Source of the DNA: a virus
Lineage: Duplodnaviria; Caudoviricetes
Length of the DNA stretch: 53,725 nucleotides
Virus record (IMG/VR): IMGVR_UViG_3300027972_000015
Location: 1-53,725 of that record
Strand: one strand, 5' to 3'
Position numbers and translations under genes: made by a program. This document shows positions 8,599 to 23,412 of the stretch, one piece after another. Position 1 is the stretch's first letter; every line of letters starts with the position of its first letter. Below the pieces are notes generated by a model, which made no database searches, was not told the origin of the DNA, and saw only the letters and a list, made by a program, of their open reading frames with translations.

Positions 8599-9678
8599 AT
8601 GATCCTTGGAATTCTCAATCAGCAAAAGGTCTGGTTTGACGACGACTGGGACTACCGAATCCAGATCACCGCCGACGCTACCAAGGTCGGAACCGGGGGC
8701 GTAACCGGGTTCGCGGCGTTCTTCGATTTGTCGGCGATTCCGTCTGGATCAGCGTTCTGGACGCACGTCGCGGCCGACGGCGCTGACATCCGAGTGACGA
8801 AAGCGGACGGGACGACCGAGGTTCCGCGCGAGGTGGTCGCGATTTCGACCGCCGGTCACACTGGAGAGCTGCACTTCCGTGGCGACCTGTCCGATACGAC
8901 GGACACGTCATACTGGCTCTACTACGGCAACGCGGCAGCGACCGAGCCGGCGGCAGCGGCGGCGAATGGGAAGTATGCCGTGTGGTCTGACAGCCTCGCC
9001 ACGTGGCACCTGACTGGATTGGCCGACTCGGCAGTCGGGCAAAACACGTTGACAGGGACCGTGACCCATGTCGCGGGGAAGATCGGCAACGCGCTTCATG
9101 TCGACGGAACCAACTACGCTACGGGCAGCGACATACTGGACCTGCACGACGCTACGTGCATGACCGTGGCTTTCTGGGCTCGGCGACACGTGCTCAATAT
9201 CAATGAGACATTCGTTGACAAATGGCAATACGTTGGCAACGGGACATTTGCGATCCAGGGCGGAGCCGTTTCGGGGAGCGGGCTGACCGTCTATGTAGCA
9301 ACGTCGGTCGGCGATGACGGGTCAGGGTGCCGAGTTGACTCCGGCGCAGGAGTTTTTGCGGAAGACGAGTGGAAGCGCATCGCGGTGGTCTACGACGGTT
9401 CACTGACTGGAGACGCGAACCGGCTGAAGGTGTACGCCGACGGCGCGCCGGTATCGATGACGACCGCCGCCGGAGCCGTTCCCGCTGCCCTCACGTCGGG
9501 CACAGCACCGATCGTGCTAGGCGCGTTCGTCGGGCTTCCGCGTGTTCTCAATGGCGAGGTAGACGAGGTTTCAATTTTCGACTGCGCGCAAACGCAGGCG
9601 TGGGTAGATACTGATTTCGAAAACCAGAACAGCGCGGCCACTTTCTGGAAGACAATCGGGGCCGAGGAAGCTCGATAA
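8599..9678 (+). CDS. DUF2341 + LamG/ConA-like lectin domain protein (359 aa)
   Basis: WDYRIQIT, DGADIRVT, YWLYYGN (DUF2341); GKIGNAL, WKRIAVVYDG, LNGEVDEVSIF (LamG). Confidence 0.8.
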   Translation: MILGILNQQKVWFDDDWDYRIQITADATKVGTGGVTGFAAFFDLSAIPSGSAFWTHVAADGADIRVTKADGTTEVPREVVAISTAGHTGELHFRGDLSDTTDTSYWLYYGNAAATEPAAAAANGKYAVWSDSLATWHLTGLADSAVGQNTLTGTVTHVAGKIGNALHVDGTNYATGSDILDLHDATCMTVAFWARRHVLNINETFVDKWQYVGNGTFAIQGGAVSGSGLTVYVATSVGDDGSGCRVDSGAGVFAEDEWKRIAVVYDGSLTGDANRLKVYADGAPVSMTTAAGAVPAALTSGTAPIVLGAFVGLPRVLNGEVDEVSIFDCAQTQAWVDTDFENQNSAATFWKTIGAEEAR

Positions 9679-9692
9679 CAAAGGACCACGAC

Positions 9693-10088
9693 ATGGCAAA
9701 ATCACTGGTGACAAACGTAGCGGTCAGCAATCTTACGAGGCTGACGTGCATCGATTACAGGTACGTATCCGACGGCGCTTCTCTTGTTGGGGCATGGGTT
9801 ACCGTCCAGGCAAGGCAGGTCGCCGGTGGGCGCACACAAGCACAACAGCTTGCGGACGGGTACGCCCCAACCGTGTTGTACATCCAGGACGGAGAATGCG
9901 ACACGTATCGCAGCAACACAGATCCGACGTTCAACCCGTACACCAACGCCTTCAAGCGGTCACGTGCAACAGTGGCGAACGGGCTGACGGCAATGCTTGC
10001 AGCTGAGGCCGTGGCTACTCGCCACAACAAACACGACGCTGTCGTGACGGCGCTCGCGTCGGCGGGGGTTCTCGACCCGGTTTCGTAA
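9693..10088 (+). CDS. Hypothetical protein (131 aa)
   Basis: AAGGA RBS; in operon. Confidence 0.6.
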   Translation: MAKSLVTNVAVSNLTRLTCIDYRYVSDGASLVGAWVTVQARQVAGGRTQAQQLADGYAPTVLYIQDGECDTYRSNTDPTFNPYTNAFKRSRATVANGLTAMLAAEAVATRHNKHDAVVTALASAGVLDPVS

Positions 10089-10104
10089 GCGAAAGGAGTA
10101 CCCC

Positions 10105-10335
10105 ATGTTCACAAAAAACAACGTCCTGCTCGCAGTCGGCATCATGGCGCTCGTCGCCCCGGACCTCGCGGCGTTCGCGGTCGGGTTGCAAGCGCTCGAC
10201 CTGCCCTGGCTGACGTGGCCGGTTCGCGTGGTCGGGTTCCTGGCGGCGGTGGCTGCGCGGGCGCCGGTGATCGTCCAGAAGGTGCTGGAGGCGCGCAAGG
10301 CGCAGGCCGAGCCACCGAAAGGCCCGACGCCGTGA
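10105..10335 (+). CDS. Holin-like membrane protein (76 aa)
   Basis: AAGGAG RBS; two hydrophobic segments and a charged C-tail. Confidence 0.5.
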   Translation: MFTKNNVLLAVGIMALVAPDLAAFAVGLQALDLPWLTWPVRVVGFLAAVAARAPVIVQKVLEARKAQAEPPKGPTP

Positions 10336-10520
10336 ACGGCGACGCCGAAGCCGCCCGCGTGGTGATTCTGACCTGGCTGGCGATCTTCCTTGCTCTGTTC
10401 TTCGCTCCGTCTTGCGCGGTCGCCGTGCCCGCCACGGTGGCCACGAGCTACGTCACAGGCCAGGTGATCGCCGTGTACATGCCAGATTCGATCGAACAAC
10501 CAATGAAAGGAAGACCATGA
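10332..10520 (+). CDS. Small membrane protein (62 aa)
   Basis: GTGA/ATGA overlaps on both sides; VVILTWLAIFLALFF TM segment. Confidence 0.4.
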   Translation: MNGDAEAARVVILTWLAIFLALFFAPSCAVAVPATVATSYVTGQVIAVYMPDSIEQPMKGRP

Positions 10521-10741
10521 ACCACGATGAGAAGATCGATCAGACAGTCGGAACCTCAGGCGAAGCGATCCTAAAGTTCTTCAAGTGCGGGCACCTGCCC
10601 GACAAGCTGCGGAGCGTGTCCGAAATGTTCGGGGTCCTTGCCCTGCACCTCGCGATTGATCTGCCGCGCTCGGCAGAGCGCACAGTGGCCCTGCGCAAGC
10701 TGCTCGAATCGAAGGACGCGGCAGTGAGGGCTGCGCTGTGA
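10517..10741 (+). CDS. Conserved small phage helical-hairpin protein, possibly Acb2/Tad1-like (74 aa)
   Basis: FFKCGHLP...LP.SAERTVALRKLLESKDAAVRA motif; relation to Acb2/Tad1 is inference. Confidence 0.6.
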   Translation: MNHDEKIDQTVGTSGEAILKFFKCGHLPDKLRSVSEMFGVLALHLAIDLPRSAERTVALRKLLESKDAAVRAAL

Positions 10742-11118
10742 TCCGCATCGTTGTCCTCGTCGCCGTCCTGCTCGCCGCCGTCCCTGCCCGCGCCGACACG
10801 CCTATCAGCAAATGCTGGTCGCGCGTCTGCGTGGGGCCCGAGGTGTCCGTCAGCGTGCTTGCGATGGACCTGGGCTCGCGCAAGATCACTGCGGGCCTGC
10901 TGCCCGTCGGGAGCATCGGCTATGGCGTGCGGACGCCGGGCGACTGGGTAGCCGCCGGGCTGTTCCTGTCGGCGAGGGCTGGCAGCGGCCTCCCTGGGTT
11001 CCTGGCGCCGTCGCTGCAGGTGAGGATTGCCCGCGCGTTCACGCTCGGGACGGAGTGCTACGTTGGCGAAGACGGCACGCGGTGGTCGCTTCTCGTGGGG
11101 GGAGGGTTCGGACTATGA
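10738..11118 (+). CDS. Secreted beta-strand-rich protein, possible small outer-membrane barrel (126 aa)
   Basis: Signal peptide ending PARA-D; alternating polar/apolar strands; C-terminus WSLLVGGGFGL. Confidence 0.55.
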   Translation: MIRIVVLVAVLLAAVPARADTPISKCWSRVCVGPEVSVSVLAMDLGSRKITAGLLPVGSIGYGVRTPGDWVAAGLFLSARAGSGLPGFLAPSLQVRIARAFTLGTECYVGEDGTRWSLLVGGGFGL

Positions 11119-11423
11119 ACTATCCCGTCTGCGCGTACATGGGGCCAATGCCATACGAACCTTTCCCATTGCAGCCGTATTGGCCGCCGATTCACCAGCC
11201 ACCGTCCGTTCCCACGGACGTCTCGACGACGATCGTCGTCATCAACAACAACGGCAAGATGACCGACGCCGAGCACGACCTCGACGAGCTGCTTGCTGCG
11301 GTGACAGAGCTTCCGCCACCGCTTACCGAAGGCGGTATGAGGCTGGCTGCAACGGTGGCCAAGCTACGCGAGCGGCAGCGCCAGAGGCTAGGGCTGCCAG
11401 AGCCGGGAAGGAAAGCGCCATGA
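11115..11423 (+). CDS. Hypothetical Pro-rich protein (102 aa)
   Basis: ATGA overlaps on both sides; GGAGG RBS. Confidence 0.5.
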   Translation: MNYPVCAYMGPMPYEPFPLQPYWPPIHQPPSVPTDVSTTIVVINNNGKMTDAEHDLDELLAAVTELPPPLTEGGMRLAATVAKLRERQRQRLGLPEPGRKAP

Positions 11424-12217
11424 AGCGCCTTGGATGGAACCCGCCGACCGAGCAGCACTACGCGCGTCTGAAGTACCGCAGCGCCGCTCCGATGTCCGTG
11501 CTCGACGGCATCATCCCGGACCAGACGTCGGACAACTACCGGCTGTGCATCCTGCTTGACCAGGGCAACTTGGGGAGTTGCACCGGCCAGGCCTGCGCAC
11601 AGATGATCCGCGCCGCCCAGGTCAAGCGGTGGGAAGTCGACGCGCCACCGGTGTCAGCGCTCGCTCTCTACTACTGGGGCCGCTACCGGGACGGCACGCA
11701 GATGGACGATGTCGGATCCAACATCTGCACGGTGCTCGACATGGCGGCCGGGCTGGGCGTTCCGCTTGAGCGCGACTGGCCCTACCAAATCGAGAAGTTC
11801 GACCTTCGCCCGTCGCTGAGCACCGACCGCGGCGCCTACGATCAGCGCGCCGTCGAGCACATGACATACGAGCAGATGTCCGCGAACAGCGAGACGTTCC
11901 TAGACCAGTTGGAGCGCGCGCTTACCGTCGGCTACCTGGTCGCGTTCGGCGTGCAGGTGTCCGAGCGGTTCTGCTCCGAGCAGCCGTCTGGCATCGTGGA
12001 AGCCCCCCTGCCCGGCGAGAAGATCGCGGGCGGCCACGCCCTCACAGCGATTGGCCACAACCACGCCGAGCGATGGGCGTTGGTGCTCAACTCGTGGGGG
12101 CCGTGGGGAGACCCGGAGTTGCCAACCGGATGCTTCCGGATGAGCTACGACTACATGACGAGATCGGCAGATCGATGGTTCGTCCCGCGAGTTCCACGAC
12201 CGGAGGTGAAGCCATGA
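11420..12217 (+). CDS. Papain-family (C1A) cysteine peptidase (265 aa)
   Basis: DQGNLGSCTG (oxyanion Q, catalytic C), GGHAL (H), NSWG (N), GCFRMSYDY. Confidence 0.9.
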   Translation: MKRLGWNPPTEQHYARLKYRSAAPMSVLDGIIPDQTSDNYRLCILLDQGNLGSCTGQACAQMIRAAQVKRWEVDAPPVSALALYYWGRYRDGTQMDDVGSNICTVLDMAAGLGVPLERDWPYQIEKFDLRPSLSTDRGAYDQRAVEHMTYEQMSANSETFLDQLERALTVGYLVAFGVQVSERFCSEQPSGIVEAPLPGEKIAGGHALTAIGHNHAERWALVLNSWGPWGDPELPTGCFRMSYDYMTRSADRWFVPRVPRPEVKP

Positions 12218-12468
12218 AGCGCATTGCCCTTGCTGTACTGCTCACCGCCTGCGGCACCGTCCCGCCTGCTCCGCCACCGCCGCCGGCAACGGCCGATTGC
12301 CCATCTGCCTGCGAGCGCGGCCGCGCTATGCTCTGCGAGTGGGCCAAGCCGACAACCAACGGGGCCGCGTGCGAAACGGTCTGCGAAAACGCGGCCCGCT
12401 TCGTACCGTGGCCGACGGCGTGCATTGCCATCGCTGCGACGTGCGCGGCGGCCGACGCCTGCCAGTGA
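12214..12468 (+). CDS. Cys/Pro-rich lipoprotein, possible o-spanin (84 aa)
   Basis: MKRIALAVLLTA-C lipobox, polyproline linker, multiple Cys. Confidence 0.65.
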   Translation: MKRIALAVLLTACGTVPPAPPPPPATADCPSACERGRAMLCEWAKPTTNGAACETVCENAARFVPWPTACIAIAATCAAADACQ

Positions 12469-12510
12469 TTCACCCGTAGCACGGCCCTCGGGCCGAGGAA
12501 GTATCTGACA

Positions 12511-12771
12511 ATGAGCGCACACCGAGATTCGTACTCAGACGAGGCCGACGCCGAGCACATGCGGTTCTGCGAGACTGATCCACGGGGGCCGGTGTGCAGA
12601 GTTCGAGAGGAGATTGGAGCGATGAAGATCGAGCTTGAGGCAATCAAGATGGAGCAAGTCCGCCAGACCGCCGTCCTAGGTTTTTGGAAGTGGGCGCTTC
12701 CCGTCGTTGTCAGCGTGGCGTCGGTCCTGGCGTCGTTGCTGGGCTCGTGGATCAAGCTGAGGCACGGATGA
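12511..12771 (+). CDS. Coiled-coil protein with C-terminal TM, holin-like (86 aa)
   Basis: WKWALPVVVSVASVLASLLGSWI TM after a short coiled-coil. Confidence 0.5.
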   Translation: MSAHRDSYSDEADAEHMRFCETDPRGPVCRVREEIGAMKIELEAIKMEQVRQTAVLGFWKWALPVVVSVASVLASLLGSWIKLRHG

Positions 12772-13001
12772 AGCGCGCACCACGTGACGTCAGCGACGAG
12801 CGCGTGACTCCCCACAAGCCTGGACGGGCCGCGCGCGCGGTGAAGGCCCACGCGAAGCCGGTTCCCATCGTGACAGCATGGTCGAAGATCCCGGCTCGCT
12901 GGGAGCGGTGCCCGCGCTGCGGGCAGGTGCGCACCGTCGGGTTCGACTGGCGGCGCCCGTGCATCGTGGACAAGAAAGCGTCGAGGTATTTGGGCGAATG
13001 A
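12768..13001 (+). CDS. Basic hypothetical protein with CPRCG motif (77 aa)
   Basis: ATGA overlaps on both sides. Confidence 0.45.
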   Translation: MKRAPRDVSDERVTPHKPGRAARAVKAHAKPVPIVTAWSKIPARWERCPRCGQVRTVGFDWRRPCIVDKKASRYLGE

Positions 13002-13351
13002 ACCACGCGAGCTTTTCCAGACGGCACAAGCGCGACGCTACCCACGGCGAGGTGGCGAAGACGCTGGAGGCGTTCGGGTTCTCGGTTGTCGACTTGTCAG
13101 GAGCCGGCGGCGGCGTCTCCGATCTGCTCGTTGGGCTGTGGAACGTGACAGACCTCGTGGAAGTCAAGAGCACAGCCGCTTCCACGTACACGCCAGCCCA
13201 GATCAAGCTGCGCGAGAAGTGGCGCGGATCTCCGTTCGTTCGCCTGGAGAACCGTCAGCAGGCCGAGGAGTGGGCGCGACGCACGCGACACGAGCGCGGG
13301 CGGGCGCAGATTCCGCCGTTGCCAGCGTTGCCGGGGTTGACGTCGCGATGA
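12998..13351 (+). CDS. PD-(D/E)xK nuclease, VRR-NUC/resolvase-like (117 aa)
   Basis: RDATHGEV...GVSDLLVG...LVEVK...TPAQ. Confidence 0.8.
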   Translation: MNHASFSRRHKRDATHGEVAKTLEAFGFSVVDLSGAGGGVSDLLVGLWNVTDLVEVKSTAASTYTPAQIKLREKWRGSPFVRLENRQQAEEWARRTRHERGRAQIPPLPALPGLTSR

Positions 13352-13567
13352 TGGATCCAGACTGGGCCGTTCGCCGCATCGAGGATCGCCTCGCGAAGTT
13401 GCGGCCGCAACCACAACCGCAGGAGACCGACATGGCCAAGAACACGAAGCCGACGAAGAAGACGCCGATCAAGCCTGGCCGACCGCTGCGACCAGGAGTT
13501 CCAGGAACGAAGCGATAGCACCAACGGCCGCGACCTGGGCCACAGATGCCGGCGGCGAGGAGGCATC

Positions 13568-13735
13568 ATGGACGAGCCGAAGAACGATCTGCAGCTCGAC
13601 ATCCCGCGCGCCTGGCTGAAACGCCGAGACGAGCTCGCGCAGCTACTCCGAGACTGCCAGCACGACGGGCGCGTGCTCGAAAACGATCGCGGTGACACCT
13701 TCTGCGAGAGGTGCGGGGCCAGGTTGACCGGCTAG
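13568..13735 (+). CDS. Small zinc-binding hypothetical protein (55 aa)
   Basis: GAGGAGG RBS; CQH...CERCG; translated by hand (below the ORF-track cutoff). Confidence 0.5.
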   Translation: MDEPKNDLQLDIPRAWLKRRDELAQLLRDCQHDGRVLENDRGDTFCERCGARLTG

Positions 13736-13947
13736 AGTGGAGGCCTCACGCTGGTAGCGGCGGCATCGTAGAACTCGACGATGAAAGCCCGTTTGCGCCT
13801 CTTCGGCACGCGCCCACATCTCGGGGCCATGCGCTCACGGTACCACCGAGCGAAGACAAGCGAGCATCGGCCACAGTAGTCCACTCCGTCGGCAAAGTGC
13901 CAACCGGTAGATGGGTGGAACGGACCGTTGCAAGCGAAGCAGCGCAC
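13732..13947 (-). CDS. Zinc-finger-like hypothetical protein (71 aa)
   Basis: CFAC...CGRC; convergent with the + strand operon. Confidence 0.55.
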   Translation of the reverse strand: MRCFACNGPFHPSTGWHFADGVDYCGRCSLVFARWYRERMAPRCGRVPKRRKRAFIVEFYDAAATSVRPPL

Positions 13948-13958
13948 GGTCGGCTATT

Positions 13959-14216
13959 CTAGCACAGCGTCGGCTTGCACACCCGCCCGCAGACCGCGAG
14001 TTGCACGCGCTCCCCGTATGCCCGTGACTCGCGCGCGTGCTGCGAATCCAGCAGGCACGAGCGGAGCATGTCGAAGGCATTGGCGATCGACTGCTGGTCC
14101 GCCTGCGAGACCGCCCGGGCGCCGCACGGGCAGACCATCCAGCCTTTACCGAATCTCGTCAGGTGCGTGCACTTCAGCGCGTGCTCCTCGTGGCCGCATG
14201 CCTTGCAGATTTTCAT
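13959..14216 (-). CDS. Cys/His-rich hypothetical protein (85 aa)
   Basis: MKICKACGHEEH...C...CPC. Confidence 0.5.
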   Translation of the reverse strand: MKICKACGHEEHALKCTHLTRFGKGWMVCPCGARAVSQADQQSIANAFDMLRSCLLDSQHARESRAYGERVQLAVCGRVCKPTLC

Positions 14217-14256
14217 GGCTACAACCCCTGTAGCCAAGCTTACCACGGCAAGCGGT

Positions 14257-14457
14257 TCAGTAGCGGAGAAGGCCCCACAAGTTCACCGGCCGGCCGAGGT
14301 AGTCGTAGGCCCATCGGTTCCCCGGGCTGTCGGGCGGCAGTGGTTGGCGGGCCGCCGGTTTCGTCACGAGGTGGTCGGCACGGGCCATGATCTTCGCGTC
14401 GAGCTCAGCCTGGCGGGAGACTTCGCGGGCCACGCGGCGGGCTTTGATGTCGTCCAT
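14257..14457 (-). CDS. Hypothetical protein (66 aa)
   Basis: First gene of the short leftward unit; TATCCT 6 nt before ATG. Confidence 0.4.
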   Translation of the reverse strand: MDDIKARRVAREVSRQAELDAKIMARADHLVTKPAARQPLPPDSPGNRWAYDYLGRPVNLWGLLRY

Positions 14458-14490
14458 GCGGAAAGGATACACCACGAATGCCAAAAAGCC

Positions 14491-14529
14491 GACGGGGCAC
14501 TTGACTCGCGCCGAGTGCCCCGTCAAACT
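14491..14529. promoter_or_regulatory. 11-bp inverted repeat overlapping a rightward promoter at the divergence point
   Basis: GACGGGGCACT-N12-AGTGCCCCGTC; TTGACT(14501)-17 nt-CAAACT; on minus strand followed by GGCTTTTT. Confidence 0.5.
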
Positions 14530-14547
14530 TTAGGTCGCCAAACCCTG

Positions 14548-14838
14548 ATGAGAACCGTAGCACCACACCACAGCGAGCGCAAGCCGGACACGTTTTCCAC
14601 CAACGGTGGTAGGGCGAGAATCGAAGTAGCGCTTGAGCCAGATGCCGGATTAGACGGGCACCGTGGCCACCACGGAAATGTGATGTTAACGGTGGATCCA
14701 AGGCAAGCGTTGCTGACGCCGTCCACGGCTCGAGCGCTTGCGAAATCTCTCATGGGATGGGCATCCGAGGCGGAGGCTCGACGAGCACGCCGCGATCAAG
14801 ATATGCCCCCGACTGGGCAGGGTGAGGCTCCGCGGTGA
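14548..14838 (+). CDS. Hypothetical protein (96 aa)
   Basis: Downstream of promoter candidate; LTPSTARALAKSL helix. Confidence 0.45.
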   Translation: MRTVAPHHSERKPDTFSTNGGRARIEVALEPDAGLDGHRGHHGNVMLTVDPRQALLTPSTARALAKSLMGWASEAEARRARRDQDMPPTGQGEAPR

Positions 14839-15626
14839 AACGCGCCCTCCGTCGCAAGACGAAGCTCGGCAGAGCAAGTAGGTCGCGCGCCGCGGGTAAC
14901 GCCCGAGCGCGAAACGCGCAACATGAGGCCGTGAGAGATGGTACTTCGCTTTTCGGGGGGCGAGGGATCGGACATGTCGGGCTGGTGACCGAGCCGGCTC
15001 TGGCGCGCAGCCAGCATACCCTCTGTCAGAGCCACGGAGCCGGGGTCTGTCCATCCCCTGGCACTAGGTAGCAGCAGAGCGGGAGCACAGGCTCACCGGA
15101 ACGCCAGCCATCAGGATGGATGGCTCAGACCCCCGAACGAGATGGCAATGACGTATGCGTAGAGAAAACGTAACCTACGCGCCGGGCAGATCAATAGACC
15201 CAGAGCTGCCCGCCGAACACCTGCTCCTGGAGCGCCAGCAAATCGCGCTCAGGGCGCACGCAGCTCGCGCAGGACGGGCGTTCTGTCGTCGGCCGGGCGT
15301 CCGTAGCCTCACCGTCATCGTGCACGCAGTCGCACGACAGCGAGGCGCACCGGTGGCCGGGCGATACGGCCCAGGCTCGGACGGTTGACGTTGTGCGGCC
15401 CATGCGTCAATCGTGGCCATACGCGCATGTAGGTGTCAAGACGTTTCGCGTAACAAAGTGACGAAAATGGGCACCGCAAGAAAATGTTGCATAGCCAACC
15501 CGACGAGTCTTGTCACGTGCACCGGGACGTCTCGGCGCGAAAGTGGCGAGATTCTTGAGGCTAGAAACTGGCCCGCGGGTTGCTTTATCCCCAGACGTGG
15601 CAACGCAAAACAAGGAGGACACGACG

Positions 15627-15866
15627 ATGACCAAGACGACGATCAACTACAACCGCTACGACGTGACGGTGCAATGGACCGACGAGACGAGGGAGCCAGG
15701 ATATCAGGAGCGCATCGAGACCATGATCGTCGAGGCTGGCGACACCCCTGACTCCGCGATCGCCGTGGCACGCACGCTGCGTCCAAACGCGTCTAGAGTG
15801 CAGGTGCACGGCGTGGCCGGAACCGGGATCGCGTTCGACGGCCGGGCCAACGTCTGGACCCGCTAG
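15627..15866 (+). CDS. Early hypothetical protein (79 aa)
   Basis: AAGGAGG RBS; repeated start cassette (MTKTTI). Confidence 0.7.
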   Translation: MTKTTINYNRYDVTVQWTDETREPGYQERIETMIVEAGDTPDSAIAVARTLRPNASRVQVHGVAGTGIAFDGRANVWTR

Positions 15867-16051
15867 CCGCCCGCGCCTCGTGCGCGGCACCGCCGTCCGT
15901 CAGTCGCCGCGAATCGGACGCGGGACGGGCGCCACCAGAACCACTCTAAGTGTCCTCGAAAGACCCGCCGACCGTTACCCCGCGCCTCGTGCGCGGTCCG
16001 CCCCTCTCGACGGAGCGAGGCGGACCGGACCCGAGATAAGGAGACACGACG
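15864..16051 (+). repeat. Structured intergenic element, copy 1
   Basis: CCGCGCCTCGTGCGCGG at 15871 and 15980; AGTGTCCTCGAAAGACCCGCCGACC at 15949; stem GGTCCGCC/GGCGGACC. Confidence 0.75.
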
Positions 16052-16312
16052 ATGAACAAGACCACGACAGCGATTCGACGATCAATGGTTCACAACAATA
16101 TGCCGACAACGACTACCGCACAGAAGCTCGTCGCGAGCCTGGCAGCGCGCATCGCGCGTCACTGGCAGCGGGGGTGGCTAGGTAGCTATTACTTCTCTTC
16201 GTCGCGAGACGCGTATCGAGCAGTGGCGCGATCGGTCCGGCTGGCCCGGGCCGGGCTGCTCCACGGAGGTCATGGCCCTTACGGGCGCGGCCCTGCGGCG
16301 TGGTTGTCGTGA
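16052..16312 (+). CDS. Early basic hypothetical protein (86 aa)
   Basis: TAAGGAG RBS; start cassette (MNKTTT). Confidence 0.6.
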   Translation: MNKTTTAIRRSMVHNNMPTTTTAQKLVASLAARIARHWQRGWLGSYYFSSSRDAYRAVARSVRLARAGLLHGGHGPYGRGPAAWLS

Positions 16313-16518
16313 CGACTAGCCAGCCCGCGCCTCGGTTCCAGTAGACCAGCGATCCGGCCGAATGCCAAAGGGTAGGCCCTACGGGCAGAACAAGAATCGC
16401 TGGTCTGCTGGGACCGAGGACAATAGTGTTCCCGAAAGACCCGCCGACCATTCCCCGTCCGCGCCTCGTGCGCGGCAGCCCCACCCGACACCGAGCGGGG
16501 CTGCTGGGACCGAGGACC
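16313..16518 (+). repeat. Structured intergenic element, copy 2
   Basis: CCGCGCCTCG at 16325, full 17-mer at 16459; AGTGTTCCCGAAAGACCCGCCGACC at 16425; 24-bp stem 16330-16353/16396-16419; stem GGCAGCCCC/GGGGCTGCT. Confidence 0.75.
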
Positions 16519-16644
16519 GTGGTAGAGCGCGACGATCTGCTCGCGGTCATCCGGGCACAGTCGTGCTGGTGCTCGCTGCGCGCGACCGGGCTGCACGTGG
16601 CGTGGTGCCCGCGGCACGGGTGGCACGACGAGGACGCTAGATAG
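16519..16644 (+). CDS. Small hypothetical protein (41 aa; CWC...H...C..H)
   Basis: GAGGA RBS with GTG start. Confidence 0.35.
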   Translation: MVERDDLLAVIRAQSCWCSLRATGLHVAWCPRHGWHDEDAR

Positions 16645-16658
16645 ATTCGCGCCGCTAG

Positions 16659-16693
16659 TTGCATCTCGACGTCAGCCGTGGTACCCATCATCA
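16659..16693 (+). promoter_or_regulatory. Promoter candidate, leaderless, for RHH gene
   Basis: TTGCAT-17 nt-(TGG)TACCCA-6 nt-ATG. Confidence 0.4.
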
Positions 16694-16945
16694 ATGAGCA
16701 AACGCATGCAAAAACTCAAGACCTCCACTCCAGCCGACAAGCCTCGCCTAGGCCGCCCGCCGACGCCGGCGAACCTGCAGCAGCGACGGTGCCTGTCCGT
16801 CCACCTCACCGACGACGAGGCGGCAGTCGTCGCGAGCGCCGCGCGGATGGCAACCTCGCCGCGCTCGCACTGGGCCAGGCGCGTGCTGGTGGATGCCGCG
16901 CGAGCCGTCCTTCGCGCCGCCGGACTCGGCGCTGACGCGCTGTGA
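16694..16945 (+). CDS. Ribbon-helix-helix-like DNA-binding protein (83 aa)
   Basis: GRPP hook then LSVHLTDDEAAVVASAA...SHWARRVL. Confidence 0.65.
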   Translation: MSKRMQKLKTSTPADKPRLGRPPTPANLQQRRCLSVHLTDDEAAVVASAARMATSPRSHWARRVLVDAARAVLRAAGLGADAL

Positions 16946-16973
16946 AGTTTCGACAGGGCTATGTCGATTTTTC

Positions 16974-17001
16974 TTGCATCGACGAATCGGGCTGGTATCC
17001 T
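16974..17001 (+). promoter_or_regulatory. Early promoter candidate
   Basis: T-tract, TTGCAT-16 nt-(TGG)TATCCT; in-frame ATG 6 nt later (17008). Confidence 0.5.
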
Positions 17002-17031
17002 AGGATCATGACGACGAAGGGAGACACGACG

Positions 17032-17277
17032 ATGACCAAGACGACGATTCGCGGAATGACCCGGGACGAGCTGACGGATGCGGCGCTGGCGTACGTGCGA
17101 GCTGGCGGACGCGACACGAGCGAGGCCACGGCAGAGCAGATCGTCGACGCGGCTGTCGACAGCATGCTCGGACGCGAGGACGTGCAGGAGCTTCGCGCCG
17201 AGGCCGGCGACGTCGAGATCGTGGTGGGAGCGCTCAAGCAGTTCGTTGCGCAGGCGATCGAGGACGAGCAGGCGTGA
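17032..17277 (+). CDS. Early acidic helical protein (81 aa)
   Basis: AAGGGAG RBS; start cassette identical over 26 bp to that of 15627. Confidence 0.7.
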   Translation: MTKTTIRGMTRDELTDAALAYVRAGGRDTSEATAEQIVDAAVDSMLGREDVQELRAEAGDVEIVVGALKQFVAQAIEDEQA

Positions 17278-17556
17278 CCATGACGAACACCAAGGAGACG
17301 ACGATGAACACCGCGAAGATGGCATACGAGCATGAGTACGAGGACGACAGCGAGCAGCTCCACACGGTTCCGGTGTACGATGCGACCTGTTGATATCGAC
17401 GTTTTCGCTGTGTTGATTCACGACTTGGCATACGCTACGCGAGAGGTCGATTACTACCCAGAGAGCATCTCGGCCGGCATGCGACTTGACAGCGCGTGCA
17501 AAGCGTGGCTGCAGGCCCGCCGGGAACAGCGCGAGCGCGCGAAGGAGGGCCGTTAA

Positions 17557-17844
17557 ATGCGCCGCCGTCACGACTCCTGGTCCGGCGACGAGCCGACCGT
17601 GCGCTGTGAGATTCCCTCGCAGGCAGAGCAGGAGGCGCGCATCCTGGCAGCGCACGATGCCCGCGCGCCGCAGTTCCCCGAGTTCGCTCCGGCCGGCCGG
17701 ACCTACTCGGTCGCCGAGATGCGTGCTGACCTGGAGACAACGCAGCCGGAGATGCCGGCGCTACCGGACCCTGACCGCGAGCCGAGCTGGCGACAGGTGC
17801 TCGCGATGGGAGTAAAGGACATTTTCTCAGAGGTACTTTCATGA
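17557..17844 (+). CDS. Hypothetical protein (95 aa)
   Basis: GGAGG RBS; coupled to next gene. Confidence 0.55.
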   Translation: MRRRHDSWSGDEPTVRCEIPSQAEQEARILAAHDARAPQFPEFAPAGRTYSVAEMRADLETTQPEMPALPDPDREPSWRQVLAMGVKDIFSEVLS

Positions 17845-18320
17845 AGACGAACGACCAGATCAGAGACGAAGCCTGCAAGCGCGCCAACGAGCTAGCCGAC
17901 GAGATCAGGCGCAAGGCGATCGCTGCAGGGTGCTCGGAGGACGTGCGCGTCATCGGGTACGCCCTTGGCGTGGGGTACTACTTCCAGCGTCGCTACGACG
18001 GTCACGTGGAGATCAGTTTCGAGGCGCTGGCTGGAGGCCGGCCCAGACGCCGCAAAGTCAACGACTGCAAGAAGCCGATCGACGTTGACAAGATCGTCGC
18101 GCTGCTGGTCGAGCATGACGGGTACCGGAAGCGGCAGAGCCAGCAATGGCGGCTGGAGTCAGACGCTCAAGAGGCCAACGAGAAGGTGGCCGAGGAGCTA
18201 CGCGCGCTCGTTCCGTGGCTGACAATCACGGCTAGGACAAGCGGACTATGGCTCAGCGTCGATGCGCAGACTCCAGCGCAAGCTCGCGCCATCGTCGACG
18301 CGCTCAAGGTGCTGCCGTGA
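17841..18320 (+). CDS. Hypothetical protein (159 aa)
   Basis: GAGG RBS, ATGA overlap. Confidence 0.65.
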   Translation: MKTNDQIRDEACKRANELADEIRRKAIAAGCSEDVRVIGYALGVGYYFQRRYDGHVEISFEALAGGRPRRRKVNDCKKPIDVDKIVALLVEHDGYRKRQSQQWRLESDAQEANEKVAEELRALVPWLTITARTSGLWLSVDAQTPAQARAIVDALKVLP

Positions 18321-18432
18321 CCAAGCTCCCAGCCGTCTCGTGCCCAACCCGTCTCGGTTTCCTGCGCCTGCTCGCGGCCGGCCCGTCGGCGGCTCGTCCC
18401 AGGTTGGTCGTCTTCGCGGCGAAGGTGCGGCC

Positions 18433-18606
18433 ATGCTGAGCGACGTAGTGCTGGCCCGGTGGTTTGATTTACTGACTGAAGAACAGCGCGATTTCCTCGC
18501 GCGTGGAGACGCGATTCGCTTCTGTCAGAGCATTCGCAAAGAAACCGGCGACCTTGGGCTAGCTCTCAGGATCTACAAGCAACTACGCGAGGTGCTGTCA
18601 TGCTGA
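18433..18606 (+). CDS. Hypothetical protein (57 aa)
   Basis: AAGGTG RBS; helical. Confidence 0.45.
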   Translation: MLSDVVLARWFDLLTEEQRDFLARGDAIRFCQSIRKETGDLGLALRIYKQLREVLSC

Positions 18607-18818
18607 CCATCGACGACCGACGGGCTCGCGCACGCATTGATGGCGGCGGCGGTGTCCACGCTCTGCTCATCGGAGCCGTCACCGCTGGCGTCGACCCGGC
18701 GAACGTCTACTCAATCGGTCGTGACGCCGACAAGGTCATCCAGCAGCTCAAGCTTGAGGTGGCGGCGCTCAAGCAACGTCTCGACGTCGCCCGCACCGTA
18801 GGGGAGGCGCGCAAATGA
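18600..18818 (+). CDS. Hypothetical protein (72 aa)
   Basis: GAGGTG RBS. Confidence 0.5.
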   Translation: MLTIDDRRARARIDGGGGVHALLIGAVTAGVDPANVYSIGRDADKVIQQLKLEVAALKQRLDVARTVGEARK

Positions 18819-18897
18819 CCGGCCTGCTGCTGCTCGTGGCTCTGGCCTGGTCGCTGCCGCCGACGCTCTACCTGATGCTTCGATGGGAGGACGACGA

Positions 18898-19146
18898 ATG
18901 ACCGCCATCGACCGCCTGCTGGCCGAGCTGATGGACCGTCACCGCCCCGAGGGACGACAGCGCGCGATCGTCATCCAGCGCGTTGGTGCCGACAGCGTCC
19001 GCGTTTCCGTGACCGACGACGTCCACTACGCGGACATCATTGTAGGCCAACGCACGCTTGAGGCCGACGGGGCCAGCGCCGAGGACGCCGCCGAGAGACT
19101 GATCACCGCAACCGACGACAACGAAAGGAACGATCATGGGCTGTGA
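18898..19146 (+). CDS. Hypothetical protein (82 aa)
   Basis: GGAGG RBS; preceded by a 28-aa hydrophobic ORF (18815-18901). Confidence 0.55.
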   Translation: MTAIDRLLAELMDRHRPEGRQRAIVIQRVGADSVRVSVTDDVHYADIIVGQRTLEADGASAEDAAERLITATDDNERNDHGL

Positions 19147-19825
19147 CATTCACGTGCACTACGAGATCAGGACCGAGCAAGGGGCGTGGAAGCACTACGA
19201 TTGGGAGGCGAAACACGTCGTCGGCAAGTACGAAGACGGGGAGCGGAAGCTGAGTTACGACGCGTATTTCAAAGACCCGCTGCACGTCGATAGAAACTAC
19301 AACCTGTTCGCCGTGCTGGCTGACGTCCGCAACGGCCGTGGTTTCGCCGGAGTCTACACAGGCGAGGAGTTCAAGCCGATCAGCCCTCCGCGCGGACTGC
19401 CAGACGATGTATCGCCAGAAGTGCGGAATGAGTCCGACGAGTGGGGAGTGGACGGGCACTCGCATTCATGGCTGACGCTGGCGGAGCTGCTAGCGTTCGA
19501 CTACGAGCAGACGCGATCGTCTTCTGGGGTGGTGGACCTGGAAGAGTTCAAGGTCTTCACGGAAAAAGGCAAGCCGAACGAGTGGAGCGGCGACGTGATT
19601 GGGCGCAACGTGGTGCACGCAAGCAACACCGAGATGCTCGCTTACATCAAAGACGGGATTCCGAACGACGGCAAAATGTACGTTACGCGGGTGACCTGGC
19701 GGGAGACCTACCGAGACGCGATCGGGCCTTGGTGGTTCGCAACGCTGCAGAAGCTGCAAGAGATGCTCTGCTGGGAGACGCGTGGGCCAGAATCCGTGCG
19801 CATGGTGTTCTGGTTCGACAACTAG
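19136..19825 (+). CDS. Conserved phage protein of the MGCDIH type (229 aa)
   Basis: MGCDIH...RNYNLFAVLADVRN...PRGLPDD...HSHSWLTLAEL...RMVFWFDN. Confidence 0.8.
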   Translation: MGCDIHVHYEIRTEQGAWKHYDWEAKHVVGKYEDGERKLSYDAYFKDPLHVDRNYNLFAVLADVRNGRGFAGVYTGEEFKPISPPRGLPDDVSPEVRNESDEWGVDGHSHSWLTLAELLAFDYEQTRSSSGVVDLEEFKVFTEKGKPNEWSGDVIGRNVVHASNTEMLAYIKDGIPNDGKMYVTRVTWRETYRDAIGPWWFATLQKLQEMLCWETRGPESVRMVFWFDN

Positions 19826-19850
19826 CCTACCGAGCGAGAGGAGTAGCACA

Positions 19851-20057
19851 ATGCCAACCGCCGACTGGAAGAGACGCGCAACCGCCACGTCTGAAGCTGA
19901 CCCGTCGTGGGACGTCAACGAAGTCCCGTGGTGCAGCGTGCACGCCTGTGCAAACTACGACGGTAAACGCTGCATGCTCACCGGGGGTCACCCTGCGACT
20001 ATTTGCGAGCCCACGGTGGCCGCGATGGCCGCGATGATTCAAGCAGGAGAGGAATAG
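19851..20057 (+). CDS. Cys-containing hypothetical protein (68 aa)
   Basis: GAGGAG RBS. Confidence 0.5.
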   Translation: MPTADWKRRATATSEADPSWDVNEVPWCSVHACANYDGKRCMLTGGHPATICEPTVAAMAAMIQAGEE

Positions 20058-20061
20058 CACC

Positions 20062-20247
20062 ATGAGCGGAGGACCAAAGTTCCTGATCAACGGCTTCGAC
20101 ATCCGCGTCAGCGACGGTATCTGGTGGGTCTACGACGCACGCACTGGCCTGGCAGCCACGTGTGGTGACGGCCAACTCGTGTTCAGCGCGATCTACCAGG
20201 ACGTGGTTGACTGGTGCCTCGGACGCCCGTCGAGGATTGGCCAATGA
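20062..20247 (+). CDS. Hypothetical protein (61 aa)
   Basis: GAGGA RBS. Confidence 0.5.
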   Translation: MSGGPKFLINGFDIRVSDGIWWVYDARTGLAATCGDGQLVFSAIYQDVVDWCLGRPSRIGQ

Positions 20248-20555
20248 GCATCCTGGACGTCGAGGACACCGGCCTCGTCCACCGCATGCACGAGCACGGG
20301 CCGTGCCGCGGGATGGGCTGCGACCACTGCTGCGGCACCGGGCGCGACGTGAAGTGCACGGTGTGCCTGGACAAGGGCAACGTGTTCTGCGAGCTCGAAA
20401 TGCACGACGGCCAGGGCCGGCGCCGGGCGTGGCTCTGCTTCGAGTGCTACCGGTGGGCATGGCTCTGCGAAGAGATCCTGCAAGGCGAAGTGCTCGTAGC
20501 GCCGCTGATGGCGCACGAGTTGGCTCAACTCACCGACAAGGGGACTGCAACATGA
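20244..20555 (+). CDS. Cys-rich zinc-finger protein (103 aa)
   Basis: CRGMGCDHCCGTG, CTVC, CFEC. Confidence 0.55.
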   Translation: MSILDVEDTGLVHRMHEHGPCRGMGCDHCCGTGRDVKCTVCLDKGNVFCELEMHDGQGRRRAWLCFECYRWAWLCEEILQGEVLVAPLMAHELAQLTDKGTAT

Positions 20556-20890
20556 CGAAGAAAGAACGACTGGCCGACGCACTGTTGATGGCGGCGAAGG
20601 CTTGGCAGGGAGGAAATTCCAGGTTCGACATTGGGATGAACTTGCAATCCGAGAAGGATACTGAATTCTCATGGGCTCCCGACGACTCGGATTGGAACTT
20701 CCAGAGACGCTGTGATGACAGCGCGTCCTGCGCCCTCTCCGAAGTCGCCGGCATGGGATTCGACCTGGTCAACGCCAGCGGGACCGACTGCGAGAAGGTG
20801 GCGGAGATGTTGCGCGCCTCGCTTGAGCCGGCGCCGACGGGCCACGCCTACGGGTACGTGTCCAGCCTCAAGATTGAGGGCGGCGAGTGA
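20552..20890 (+). CDS. Hypothetical protein (112 aa)
   Basis: ATGA/GTGA overlaps. Confidence 0.55.
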   Translation: MTKKERLADALLMAAKAWQGGNSRFDIGMNLQSEKDTEFSWAPDDSDWNFQRRCDDSASCALSEVAGMGFDLVNASGTDCEKVAEMLRASLEPAPTGHAYGYVSSLKIEGGE

Positions 20891-21771
20891 GGTGCTCGGC
20901 GCTGCCGCTGCCAGCAGGCATGCACAGAGGCATCAGTCACGACGACTACCACGCTGACCCGTGCGAGGCGCCATCGCTGTCCAGCCACATGGCCGGCATC
21001 CTGCTTGGCAAGTCGCCGCTGCACGCGTGGCGCGCCCACCCGCGACTTGGTGCCAAGGCAAGGCAGAAGGACACAGACGCCAAGGACGCCGGTTCAATCC
21101 GCCACAAGCTGGTCTATGGAGTCGGCCCGGCGATCGTCGTCGTGGACGCGGACGACTGGCGAAAGAAGGACGCGCAGCAGGCGCGTGACGAGGCCCGCGC
21201 TAACGGGGAAATCCCGGTGCTCGCCCGCAAGATGCGAGACGCGGAGGAAGAGGCGTCGCTCATCATCGACGGATACCCGGTGCCGATCAATGAGTGCGCC
21301 GTCGAGCTGACCGTAGTCTGGTTTGATGCCGAGTTCGGCATCTGGTGCCGGTCGCGCGTCGACTCTTGGCACCGCCAAACGGCGACGATCTACGACTTGA
21401 AGACGTGCGAGAACATGGTCGCGGCTGCCAGCGGAAGCACATGCATCAAGTACGGTTACGACATCCAGGCCGCCGCGAACATCGAAGGAATCGAAACCAA
21501 CTTGCCGGAACTCGCGGGCAGGGTACAATTCAAGTTCCATTTCGTGGAGCCAGGAATTACGCCGTCCACACCGGAGCTTTCCGGCGAGCTGCTGGAACTC
21601 GGGCGCCGCAAGTGGAAACGAGCCAAGGAGATTTGGGCGCAGTGCCTGAAGTCCGACAAGTGGCCAGGTCCTCAGATCACACGCATCGAGGCCCCACCGT
21701 GGTCGACGGCGCAGGACATGGAACAGCAACTCAAGCAACTTGAAGGGGGTTCAGATGGAATCGGTTTCTAG
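20887..21771 (+). CDS. RecE/exonuclease VIII-like PD-(D/E)xK nuclease (DUF3799-like)
   Basis: ISHDDYHAD, LSS, GSIRH, CRSRVD, IYDLKT, YGYDIQAA, KWPG. Confidence 0.85.
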   Translation: MRCSALPLPAGMHRGISHDDYHADPCEAPSLSSHMAGILLGKSPLHAWRAHPRLGAKARQKDTDAKDAGSIRHKLVYGVGPAIVVVDADDWRKKDAQQARDEARANGEIPVLARKMRDAEEEASLIIDGYPVPINECAVELTVVWFDAEFGIWCRSRVDSWHRQTATIYDLKTCENMVAAASGSTCIKYGYDIQAAANIEGIETNLPELAGRVQFKFHFVEPGITPSTPELSGELLELGRRKWKRAKEIWAQCLKSDKWPGPQITRIEAPPWSTAQDMEQQLKQLEGGSDGIGF

Positions 21772-22765
21772 AAAGTTCGACGACAAGCCGGCAGTATTGG
21801 AGCGCGTCCCGCTGCTGGTTGGACTGGTCGGGTCCAGCGGCTCTGGGAAGACGTTCTCGGCTCTGCGGCTGGCCACTGGCATTCAGCGGGTCACCGGCGG
21901 TGACATCGGGTTCGTGGACACCGAGGCGAAGCGGGCGCTTCACTACTCCACCAAGTTCAAGTTTCGTCATGTCCCGTTCGGCGCTCCGTTCTCTCCACTC
22001 GACTACCTGGCAGCCATCGAGCACTACGTGTCTCGCGGCGTGAAAACGATCGTGGTGGACAGCATGAGCCACGAACACGAGGGCCCCGGCGGCGTGCTGG
22101 AGGAGCACGACGAGGAGACGACGAGGCTAGCCGCCGCGTGGAAGGTTAGCCGCGACTCCGCGCAGATGAGCGCGTGGGCACAACCCAAAGCCAAACGGCG
22201 GAGGCTCATCAACTCCATTCTGCAGATGGAGATCAACGCCGTTTTCTGCTTCAGGGCCAAGGAGAAGATCAAGCCGGTCAAGGGCGGCAAGCCGATGGAG
22301 CTTGGATGGATGCCGATCGCCGGCGAGGAGTTCGTGTACGAGATGACGGCCAACTGCCTGCTCTACCCGCAGTGTGGCGGCGTCCCGACCTGGAAGACGG
22401 ACCAGCCGGGTGAGCGCGCGATCATCAAGCTCCCCGAGCAGTTCGCCGGCCTGTTCGCGAAGCCGCACGCGTTGTGTGAGGAAGACGGCGAGCACATGGC
22501 GAAGTGGGCGGAGGGCGGAGTGGTGCCGGCGTCGCAGCCAAAACCGAACGCCTGGGCCGGCATCTTCGCAAAGGTTGCCGCGCTCGGCGGGCCTGACGCT
22601 CAGGATCGAATCCTAGCCTTCGTCGGGCGATCGTCCGTCGAAGAGTTGACCAACGCCGACGGCAACCGCATCGTGGCCGCTGGCAAGAAGGTCAAGGAAG
22701 GCGCGTCGACGTTCGATGCCGAGTTCCCCAAGGATGGCTCTCCTGCCGAGGAGCCGTCCAAGTGA
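21755..22765 (+). CDS. AAA_24/Sak4-like recombination ATPase (336 aa)
   Basis: Walker A GSSGSGKT, VDTE, Walker B IVVDSMSHEHEG, FVYEMT; adjacent to RecE-like gene. Confidence 0.85.
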   Translation: MESVSRKFDDKPAVLERVPLLVGLVGSSGSGKTFSALRLATGIQRVTGGDIGFVDTEAKRALHYSTKFKFRHVPFGAPFSPLDYLAAIEHYVSRGVKTIVVDSMSHEHEGPGGVLEEHDEETTRLAAAWKVSRDSAQMSAWAQPKAKRRRLINSILQMEINAVFCFRAKEKIKPVKGGKPMELGWMPIAGEEFVYEMTANCLLYPQCGGVPTWKTDQPGERAIIKLPEQFAGLFAKPHALCEEDGEHMAKWAEGGVVPASQPKPNAWAGIFAKVAALGGPDAQDRILAFVGRSSVEELTNADGNRIVAAGKKVKEGASTFDAEFPKDGSPAEEPSK

Positions 22766-23003
22766 TTTCCGCCGCCGTCTCGCTCCTCCTTCCGGCTCGT
22801 CACCGGCGTCGTCATGGCGAGGCGGCGGCACTCTCATCAACCACCAACCCCCACGAGGTGCCCCACCGAACACAATCCCACGTCCGAAAAACTGAATAGT
22901 CCCGTCCTTCCCTCCGCCTGATTCACAGGCAAACGGCGACCACGGCCGGCATTCAGCGAACGGTGGGAGCCGACGCGATCGTCACGATCACACACCAATA
23001 GGC

Positions 23004-23085
23004 GCCGCGTCGGTTGTGCCGCTACCCTGGTAAAGCAGCCTCGAAAGCTGTGGGTTTCGCCGGTGTTCGATTCGCCGGAGGCGGC
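23004..23085 (+). ncRNA. Degenerate tRNA-like element (possible CGA anticodon loop)
   Basis: T-arm CGGTG-TTCGATT-CGCCG; GCCGCGTC/GAGGCGGC acceptor-like stem with one mismatch; GCAGC-CTCGAAA-GCTGT; no canonical D-arm, no CCA. Confidence 0.3.
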
Positions 23086-23313
23086 CTAAATGTTCCACTG
23101 GTTACTAGTCCAAGTCGGCACCATCGAAGTTGATGGCAAAGAAGAAACGCAGCTCGACTTGGGAAACCGCAATCGCGTCGGCGCAAACACCGATCGCCGT
23201 CGGATTGCTCATTACAACACCGTCCTGGCTGGGTTCGGCTCCAGAGTTGTGACGGTTACGGCCGCCAAGCTCCGGGCTGAAACGACATAGGACCGAGCGG
23301 AGGAGCGAGGAAA

Positions 23314-23412
23314 TCCAAGGGCTTTCGGAAGAGCGCCGAACGTGGTGGCAATGGAACCCACGATGGGATGTGTTCCCAAAAGGCGATCGCGGTTCGACTC
23401 CGCGCCTTGGAC
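23314..23412 (+). ncRNA. tRNA-like element with branched insert in place of the anticodon loop
   Basis: Perfect 7-bp TCCAAGG/CCTTGGA next to perfect T-arm CGCGG-TTCGACT-CCGCG. Confidence 0.5.

Follow-up and report, generated by a model that had tools for sequence, protein, structure and literature searches.

What is the element that is repeated behind the first small early genes of the uncultured phage record IMGVR_UViG_3300027972_000015, and in which molecule does it act? The window, i.e., the whole stretch of DNA analyzed here, is this IMG/VR virus record of 53,725 bases, and the element occupies the spacers that follow two small genes, g1 and g2 (spacers A and B, respectively). A first-pass annotation made from the sequence alone had described the spacers as two copies of one element of 190–205 nt, and had proposed an unnamed cis-acting RNA or a recombination site for single-gene cassettes. 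The repeated unit was shown to be a module of ~70 nt with relatives in other viral and metagenome records. From 5′ to 3′, the module consists of a TAG triplet, a C-rich spacer, an invariant GC hairpin (hairpin 1, HP1), a variable hairpin (hairpin 2, HP2), a CCGGAC(C)GAR tail, a Shine-Dalgarno sequence and a start codon, and the G+C content of the modules is 67–80%.

Within the window, the 17-mer CCGCGCCTCGTGCGCGG that corresponds to HP1 was found in three exact copies, at 15871, 15980, and 16459, all on the plus strand, compared to 0.00 expected from 100 shuffles. A 25-nt box was found at 15949–15973 and at 16425–16449 with 23 of 25 bases identical (2 matches vs. 0.00 expected). The last stems of the two spacers differ in sequence and nevertheless both pair, UCCGCC with GGCGGA at 15997–16024 and CAGCCCC with GGGGCUG at 16476–16503. 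An alignment of spacers A and B showed a mean column identity of 77%. The three exact hairpin copies, the near-identical box and the re-paired last stem had all been reported by the first-pass annotation, and all three were reproduced. The repetition thus stood, but the single 190–205 nt unit did not. A covariance model (R1), built from 10 modules and searched over whole records and further loci, matched twice in each spacer, and each spacer of the window is therefore regarded as two modules joined by the box: A1 (15864–15929, 30.8 bits) and A2 (15980–16035, 66.1 bits) in spacer A, and B1 (16317–16421, 17.9 bits) and B2 (16459–16515, 65.3 bits) in spacer B.

All four modules are on the plus strand, as are both boxes. 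Module A1 is a degenerate copy (E = 8.5e-6) whose first three bases are the TAG stop codon of g1 (15864–15866); a CCGC spacer, HP1 at 15871–15887, a rearranged second hairpin and the tail CGGACGCGGGAC follow. Box A, which starts with GTG, links it to A2, in which HP1 (15980–15996), HP2 (15997–16024), and the tail CCGGACCCGAG (16025–16035) are succeeded by AAGGAGA and the ATG of g2 at 16052. Module B1 (E = 0.015) has its TAG at 16317–16319, out of frame, followed by CCAGCCCGCG, a long hairpin and the tail GGGACCGAGGAC. The arms of this hairpin (16330–16353 and 16396–16419) are 24 nt long and 92% complementary, the 3′ half of HP1 is missing, and the hairpin is the most stable 90-nt fold across the window (z = −6.6; next best −3.96). 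Box B contains a GTG at 16426 with GAGGA at 5-nt spacing, and B2 comprises HP1 (16459–16475), HP2 (16476–16503), and the tail CUGGGACCGAGG (16504–16515). As a whole, copy B folds far more stably than its shuffles (z = −5.7). The two spacers differ in three respects. The long stem is strong in B only; the TAG of spacer A is the stop codon of g1, whereas g2 ends with TGA at 16310–16312, ahead of the out-of-frame TAG; and the ribosome binding site after spacer B is doubtful, with GAGGA only 2 nt before the GTG at 16519.

The box itself is specific to the window. Its 17-mer core occurred at six loci in IMG/VR, none with the element around it, and the idea of a motif shared with relatives was dropped. 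Box A opens a 31-codon open reading frame (ORF; 15950–16045) that lacks a Shine-Dalgarno sequence and whose TAA end lies inside the Shine-Dalgarno site of g2, whereas the ORF from GTG 16426 (72 amino acids) reads through B2 to 16644, into a Cys-rich ORF. An origin of the box as a gene-start relic was also rejected. In 16 local alignments of boxes A and B with eight initiation regions, three reached p < 0.05, with 0.030 and 0.047 as the smallest values, at least 13 gave p > 0.09, and the best alignment covered the GGACCGAGGA tail only. Nor did a coding cause account for the similarity of box and module, as the A/B differences were not concentrated at third codon positions, the changes in HP2 keep base pairs rather than amino acids, and modules lie directly after stop codons in relatives.

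With R1, at least 18 modules were found in nine related viral or metagenome records, the window included: four in the window, three each in G001 and G004, one each in G002, G003, and G005, three and one in the metagenome contigs L235 and L219, respectively, and one, in an HP1-only form, in L077. All 18 are located on the gene strand among small early genes. Elsewhere in these records of 47–75 kb no site was found at E < 0.1 except for opposite-strand palindromic echoes at the module sites. In the relatives, the space from one gene to the next is occupied by just one module. The 17-mer hairpin alone was detected at 31 loci in IMG/VR, and at five of them (6 matches) it stood in the module layout, with a TAG stop, C-rich bases, the 17-mer, a differing second hairpin, a GGAC...GAG tail, a Shine-Dalgarno sequence, and ATG. 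One of these five contigs encodes a primase-helicase that is 79% identical to that of the window; the primase of G005 is only 56% identical, and 56–79% is the range across the records. In at least six unrelated contigs the 17-mer is followed by a T-run, like an ordinary terminator stem, and the rest of the loci lie in coding-looking sequence. At L027/L041, L034, L039, and L040/L042 the 17-mer with its T-run stands after a gene end and looks like an ordinary intrinsic terminator.

Pattern scans extended this search. In IMG/VR 47 loci matched, the real ones being the known records and L077. In metagenomes at least 120 loci matched, and the real ones among the matches listed were G004's own contig, L219, and L235; further family members probably exist. 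The genomes of 185,579 bacterial species gave 26 loci. Eight of these were inspected and found to be without TAG and HP2 context, none scoring above 34.8 bits, and for the others the score did not exceed 24.6 bits or no match was listed at E ≤ 0.01. Used as a query, a 229-amino-acid phrog_10141 protein found no relatives in IMG/VR, and an alignment of a 159-amino-acid protein family found only G001 and G004. The whole window had no match in Rfam 15 at gathering scores. By E-value, region 15300–17100 gave only weak miRNA-precursor-like matches to the B1 hairpin (22.3 bits vs. a cut-off of 58). No self-cleaving RNA family matched, and nothing specific pointed to the ribozyme that the first-pass annotation had listed among its options. 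In the literature, searched for this element and for conserved stem-loops in the spacers of early phage genes, only analogues were found (the promoter-early stem-loops, PeSLs, and the start-associated sequences, SAS, with their extended form, ESAS, both compared below).

The selection on structure that had been suspected from two copies was supported by the family. In an alignment of 16 modules fitted to the covariance model, both partners vary in seven of the eight HP2 pairs, and pairing is kept in 92% of the cells. The covariation score of HP2 was reached by none of 500 shuffles, and when the partner columns were slid, HP2 pairing fell to 24–60%. RNAalifold, run on a MAFFT alignment of 10 modules, agreed with this result, as it placed HP1 and HP2 adjacent to each other and showed compensatory changes in six of eight HP2 pairs. 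The main HP2 stem contains sense-strand G.U pairs in 10 cells. With homologues in relatives, compensatory changes and no Rfam match, the description as an unnamed conserved structured cis element is retained.

Besides the HP1 + HP2 form, the module is predicted to be able to adopt a second fold, a long hairpin, which also has comparative support. This hairpin was present in the single-sequence folds of 11 of 12 segments, including the minimum-energy fold of A2 and the folds of B2. In this hairpin, the 5′ portion of the HP1 loop (CCUCG or CUUCGG) is paired with the tail (CGAGG or CCGAAG). A lower stem of 4–6 bp is followed by a 2 × 2 internal loop and an upper stem of 9–10 bp formed by CGG, HP2, and CCG. 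In all 12 modules computed, the long hairpin was more stable than the forced HP1 + HP2 form, by 1.6–9.2 kcal/mol. In some relatives, the CUCGU of the HP1 loop is replaced by UUCG, which with a C-G closing pair makes the classic stable tetraloop. All five UUCG loops are combined with a CCGAA tail, and the C-type loops with CGAG in 8 of 12 cases and with CGAA in none (Fisher's p ~1.6e-4, calculated by hand on copies that are not independent). Both loop/tail states occur on one HP2 lineage, as seen when G001a is compared with M219 and M235a (HP2 identity 85–92%). In addition, a G-to-C change at the last HP1 position of G005 is matched by a C-to-G change in its upper-stem partner (pair 29–63). This matching of loop and tail supports the predicted alternative hairpin. 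Natural single-state forms also exist, B1 having the long hairpin only and L077 having HP1 only.

At its 5′ end the module is tied to the end of translation. A TAG is located 4–9 nt before HP1 in all 16 gene-following modules, and in 14 of these it closes, in frame, a reading frame that is open for 79 codons or more. The exceptions are B1 and M235c, in which the preceding gene has its stop codon a few bases before the TAG, and the TAG has been retained out of frame. Among 93 crude gene calls in the window, TGA was the commonest stop codon (63/93) and TAG was used in 23. Since TAG is present in 16 of 16 modules, even out of frame, it is regarded as part of the element, and its use as a stop codon as selected. 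At the 3′ end, the Shine-Dalgarno sequence of the next gene lies within a few bases of the tail in most modules. After A2 it belongs to a conserved translation-initiation region on the plus strand, GGAGACACGACG ATG ACC/AAC AAG ACS ACG (16037–16068), with further copies at 15612–15643, 17017–17048, and 17289–17320 (5 matches with at most three mismatches vs. 0.82 expected). The region was also found in the early regions of L050, L051, L053, L235, and L219. As it includes the first codons, MT(K/T)TT is the N-terminus of many small early proteins that are otherwise unrelated. Two translational candidates were set aside. Read-through into the next gene did not fit TAG-to-ATG distances of 188, 83, 76, and 68 nt, which keep no constant frame. 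A C-rich flank acting as an anti-Shine-Dalgarno sequence that is opened by the terminating ribosome gave a weak signal and was not adopted as the mechanism.

Stable GC-rich sense-strand hairpins in an early transcript could also act on transcription itself, either by attenuation or by termination without a U-tract that grades expression along the early operon, or by put- or nut-like antitermination past a terminator-like hairpin at 16950–16975. The put RNA of phage HK022 consists of two adjacent stem-loops acting in cis in early phage transcripts, and its two copies per genome keep their structure while differing in sequence. Each operon has one put site, close to the promoter, and neither a stop codon nor a Shine-Dalgarno sequence is known to be linked to it. 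The paired stem-loops of the modules, ~60–70 nt long, resemble this layout by description, as their structure is likewise kept while the sequence changes, and a terminator-like hairpin with a T-run does lie downstream. Furthermore, similarly placed PeSL stem-loops of T4-type phages were effective as terminators when tested in reporters (PMC2839356). Against this role, T-runs are missing from all modules, none of which was picked up by the terminator scan; the module hairpin is followed by CCGGAC(C)GAR instead of a U-tract, whereas the unit formed by g1 to g4 does end in the T-run hairpin at 16950–16975, so that the module is not a plain terminator. With 1–4 modules per record, all at stop/start junctions and none near a promoter, the distribution also differs from that of put, and an antiterminator would need neither the in-frame TAG nor the adjacent Shine-Dalgarno sequence. 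No Rfam family matched, and no N-like or Q-like protein turned up, although no search was aimed at them. Nothing specific pointed to the put-like antiterminator that had been proposed earlier, and a role at the level of transcription seems unlikely to us.

The genes around the modules are less conserved than the modules themselves. In comparison to relatives, the modules showed 77–96% nucleotide identity and the nearest shared genes ~66%. Module-adjacent genes were mostly singletons among the eight records compared, and different genes do lie between the elements in relatives, as had been anticipated for shuffled cassettes. Gene families that are shared adjoin a module in one record and not in another; the g5 family of the window is followed by a module only in L219, and the 159-amino-acid family is preceded by one only in G004. 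The HP2 of B2 was 89% identical to that of G002, with one compensated C-G to U-A pair, and the HP2 of A2 was 89% identical to that of module M235b, while box and HP1 are identical between A and B within the window. HP2 lineages thus cross records while box and HP1 agree within the window, which points to exchange inside modules. No match to Phage_integrase (PF00589) was found in any of five phage records examined, compared to 14 of 14 control genomes, and Y1_Tnp (PF01797) was likewise without a match in all five, while control genomes gave matches. The proposed recombination site for single-gene cassettes fits the differing genes, but neither a tyrosine recombinase, of the kind encoded near integron attC sites, nor a Y1 transposase was found in these records.

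Several copies per record, in several lineages, might also be selfish or neutral palindromic repeats, MITE- or REP-like, that spread in the early region and are tolerated between genes. REP/BIME elements are GC-rich imperfect palindromes after stop codons in operons, with a GTAG beside the stem; they stabilize upstream mRNA, and copies close to the stop codon are reported to affect translation of the upstream gene. Host chromosomes contain them by the hundreds and in either orientation, and they are linked to RAYT transposases. The nearly perfect 24-nt inverted arms of B1 agree with such an origin, and the (C/G)TAG before a GC-rich palindrome recalls the GTAG of REP. Unlike REPs, the modules are present in low copy number (1–4 per record), in phage records only and without a Y1 transposase match; unlike MITEs, all 18 have the same orientation and lie at gene ends. 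Compensatory pairing has been kept across records whose primase-helicases have diverged as described above, and the inspected bacterial loci lacked the module context. We therefore consider selfish repeats a very unlikely explanation.

Other known systems have a similar layout. The early RNase III sites of T7 are intercistronic hairpins of about two helical turns, or ~20 bp, in a polycistronic early mRNA; their sequences are mutually similar, an internal loop separates the lower from the upper stem, and cutting leaves a 3′ hairpin that stabilizes the upstream message. The predicted long hairpin of the modules is likewise intercistronic and likewise divided by an internal loop into a lower and an upper stem; the modules differ by the competing HP1 fold and the invariant TAG, and cleavage is putative here. 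The PeSLs of T4-type phages are described as short conserved intergenic motifs in variable early regions, flanked by ORFan genes, each with a stem-loop and ending with the Shine-Dalgarno sequence and start codon of the next gene (PMC2839356; PMC4122927). They are reported to be more conserved than the surrounding genes, to have been proposed and shown as recombination sites, and to contain a strong early promoter of the sigma-70 type whose upstream region is AT-rich (PMC2839356; PMC4122927). With PeSLs the modules share the stem-loop, the 3′ Shine-Dalgarno sequence and start codon, and the ORFan flanks in a variable region. They differ in having no promoter-like site in 15864–16520 (consensus scan of 8000–27000), in being GC-rich, in their predicted two-way folding and in always beginning with TAG, and no sequence relationship to PeSLs was seen.

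A further analogue comes from Cluster K mycobacteriophages, in which SAS repeats in a single orientation are found at the translation starts of a subset of non-structural genes (PMC3203893). The extended form (ESAS) adds an imperfect inverted repeat just upstream, at a variable spacer, with arms of 17 bp separated by 4–13 bp; 11–19 copies occur per Cluster K genome, and a role in translation is suspected (PMC3203893). The modules are similarly in one orientation and start-associated, with an upstream inverted repeat. The 13-bp SAS GGGATAGGAGCCC, however, had no match in the window at up to two mismatches, the modules number 1–4 per record vs. 11–19, and a stop codon has not been described within the SAS. 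These comparisons characterize the element as a conserved regulatory junction in the variable early region of the phage, set apart by the two-state fold, the fixed TAG and the GC-rich make-up.

The reading we prefer, to which we would give somewhat less than an even chance, is that the module is an mRNA element of cistron boundaries, with a processing, stabilizing or insulating function, which doubles as a linker in the recombination of gene cassettes. As such, it would resemble the T4 PeSLs and the T7 RNase III sites. It would be carried in the polycistronic early mRNA of a small clade of uncultured phages with high G+C content, at the boundaries of small, mostly unshared genes. The element would act in the sense RNA, after transcription. 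A hairpin proof against ribosomes would be located immediately after the stop codon, where a terminating ribosome does not reach it; this hairpin may mark a processing site for an RNase III-type endonuclease, guard the 3′ terminus of the preceding cistron, and insulate the following initiation region from neighboring sequence. Small genes would be gained, lost and swapped singly through the modules as homologous-recombination linkers, a role suggested by the higher conservation of the modules compared to the genes around them.

Several observations weigh against this reading. We infer processing, stabilization, and insulation alike from the anatomy of the module. The modules are related copies, and the counts of covarying cells therefore overstate the number of independent events; HP1 never varies, and its four predicted pairs are thus uninformative. 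In G005, a one-sided change breaks one lower-stem pair of the long hairpin. As a whole, copy A folds no better than its own shuffles (z = −0.05). The calculated mean probability of the Shine-Dalgarno sequence being unpaired, over 13 modules, was 0.44 in the native context; masking of the stop site gave 0.57 and shuffling of the flank 0.41, which is a weak effect. Why the stop codon must be TAG is left unexplained by an mRNA element of this kind. Finally, the complementary strand was the more stable one in 14 of 17 modules, by a mean of 3.7 kcal/mol, whereas random windows showed no such bias (mean −0.6, sd 4.7). When folded as purines and pyrimidines, the modules contained 51 A.C vs. 25 G.U oppositions, compared to 1969 vs. 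1800 in random windows. An excess of A.C is the pattern expected if the other strand were under selection for pairing. It is concentrated at two conserved places, the internal loop and a 1 × 1 loop below the apical mini-stem, and the oppositions may represent either purposeful mismatches of the mRNA or wobble pairing within another molecule, be it an antisense RNA or single-stranded DNA.

This strand bias is what would be seen if the element were a DNA-level hairpin or cruciform on the complementary strand, i.e., an attC-like site for single-strand recombination of cassettes, or a priming or promoter hairpin like those of N4. Each module follows one small, mostly unshared gene in a cassette-like manner, and the exchange inside modules described above is compatible with such a site. 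The sense-strand G.U pairs in the main HP2 stem speak against it, and the in-frame TAG with the adjacent Shine-Dalgarno sequence points to mRNA. The recombinase and transposase searches were negative as given above, no phage RNA polymerase was recognized among the large ORFs, and the half-sites of HP1, spaced 4 or 5 nt apart, are ill-suited to the operator of a fixed dimer. A DNA-level site is accordingly regarded as quite unlikely. A bolder version, in which the modules are the 3′ ends of mobile single-gene cassettes (initiation region, small ORFan, TAG, and hairpin), integron-like though without a recognizable integrase, and the hairpin on the complementary strand is cut and joined by an as yet unnamed recombinase or nuclease, is in our view highly improbable. 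The cistron-boundary mRNA element with a linker role remains our preferred explanation.

The record that carries the element looks complete (estimated completeness 95%) and has a G+C content of ~64%, with nearly all genes on the plus strand. The window encodes a Toprim-DnaB primase-helicase, a large terminase, a portal-like protein, methylases, and a PDDEXK nuclease, while the majority of its proteins match neither a Pfam nor a PHROG family; of 10 large ORFs, 8 were without a PHROG family. The terminase had no match among 50,697 phage records. In the same set, the primase-helicase gave distant matches only, all below 60% identity, and blastn of 15400–17100 gave no match; this phage is very distant from cultured ones. 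Among sequencing runs searched for the stretch, no RNA run was listed, and one DNA run that contains it may be the source sample. No tRNA or suppressor genes were found in the window. Three further ORFs were noted: an HNH endonuclease-like one at 27248–27616 (weak, 21.5 bits vs. a cut-off of 23), one resembling an N6/N4 DNA methylase at 25051–25707, and one at 39993–42152 whose 719-amino-acid product contains an FkbM methyltransferase domain.

The run of small early genes starts downstream of a low-GC regulatory gap (15389–15626). The first gene, g1 (15627–15866, plus strand; 79 amino acids, starting MTKTTI), was supported by the ORF list and by the signal of G+C at third codon positions (GC3), and has no Pfam or PHROG family. 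Its leader at 15481–15570 folds well for its G+C content (z = −3.3, rank seventh across the window). The second, g2 (16052–16312, plus strand; 86 amino acids, starting MNKTTT), has weak coding statistics. The small Cys-rich g3 (16519–16644, plus strand), which has no Pfam family, is of uncertain start, either GTG 16519 or GTG 16426, and with the longer start its GC3 is 0.85 over 16426–16644. Gene g4 (16694–16945) precedes the terminator-like hairpin and T-run on the plus strand (16950–16975, terminator scan), with which the module-bearing g1–g4 unit ends. This hairpin is kept in G001 (window 16953–16982 vs. L050 6497–6526), and the region may be a terminator-promoter composite. An inverted repeat of 21 nt with 76% complementarity (15476–15496 and 16957–16977) brackets the unit, and its right copy lies within the terminator-like hairpin with the T-run, followed by TTGCAT. 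In G001, an ORF for a GIY-YIG endonuclease (L050 6048–6488; 30.5 bits vs. a cut-off of 22.6) with a weakly NikA-like C-terminus separates the g4 homologue from the terminator-promoter region, and is absent from the window.

For gene annotation in these genomes, the module model tells real small genes apart from ORFs that just cross the hairpins, such as 16426–16518, and the modules mark sites of gene gain and loss. If the preferred reading is correct, an uncultured phage clade would use one standard junction, consisting of a stop codon, a two-state hairpin and a fixed initiation region, to express and exchange its small early genes, the class that usually holds host-takeover and anti-defense functions. 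The module would then be a compact candidate RNA switch, both folds of which have left a trace in the sequence comparison. It would also represent a second, structurally different case of the 'regulatory cassette' principle of T4-type PeSLs, in a high-GC setting.

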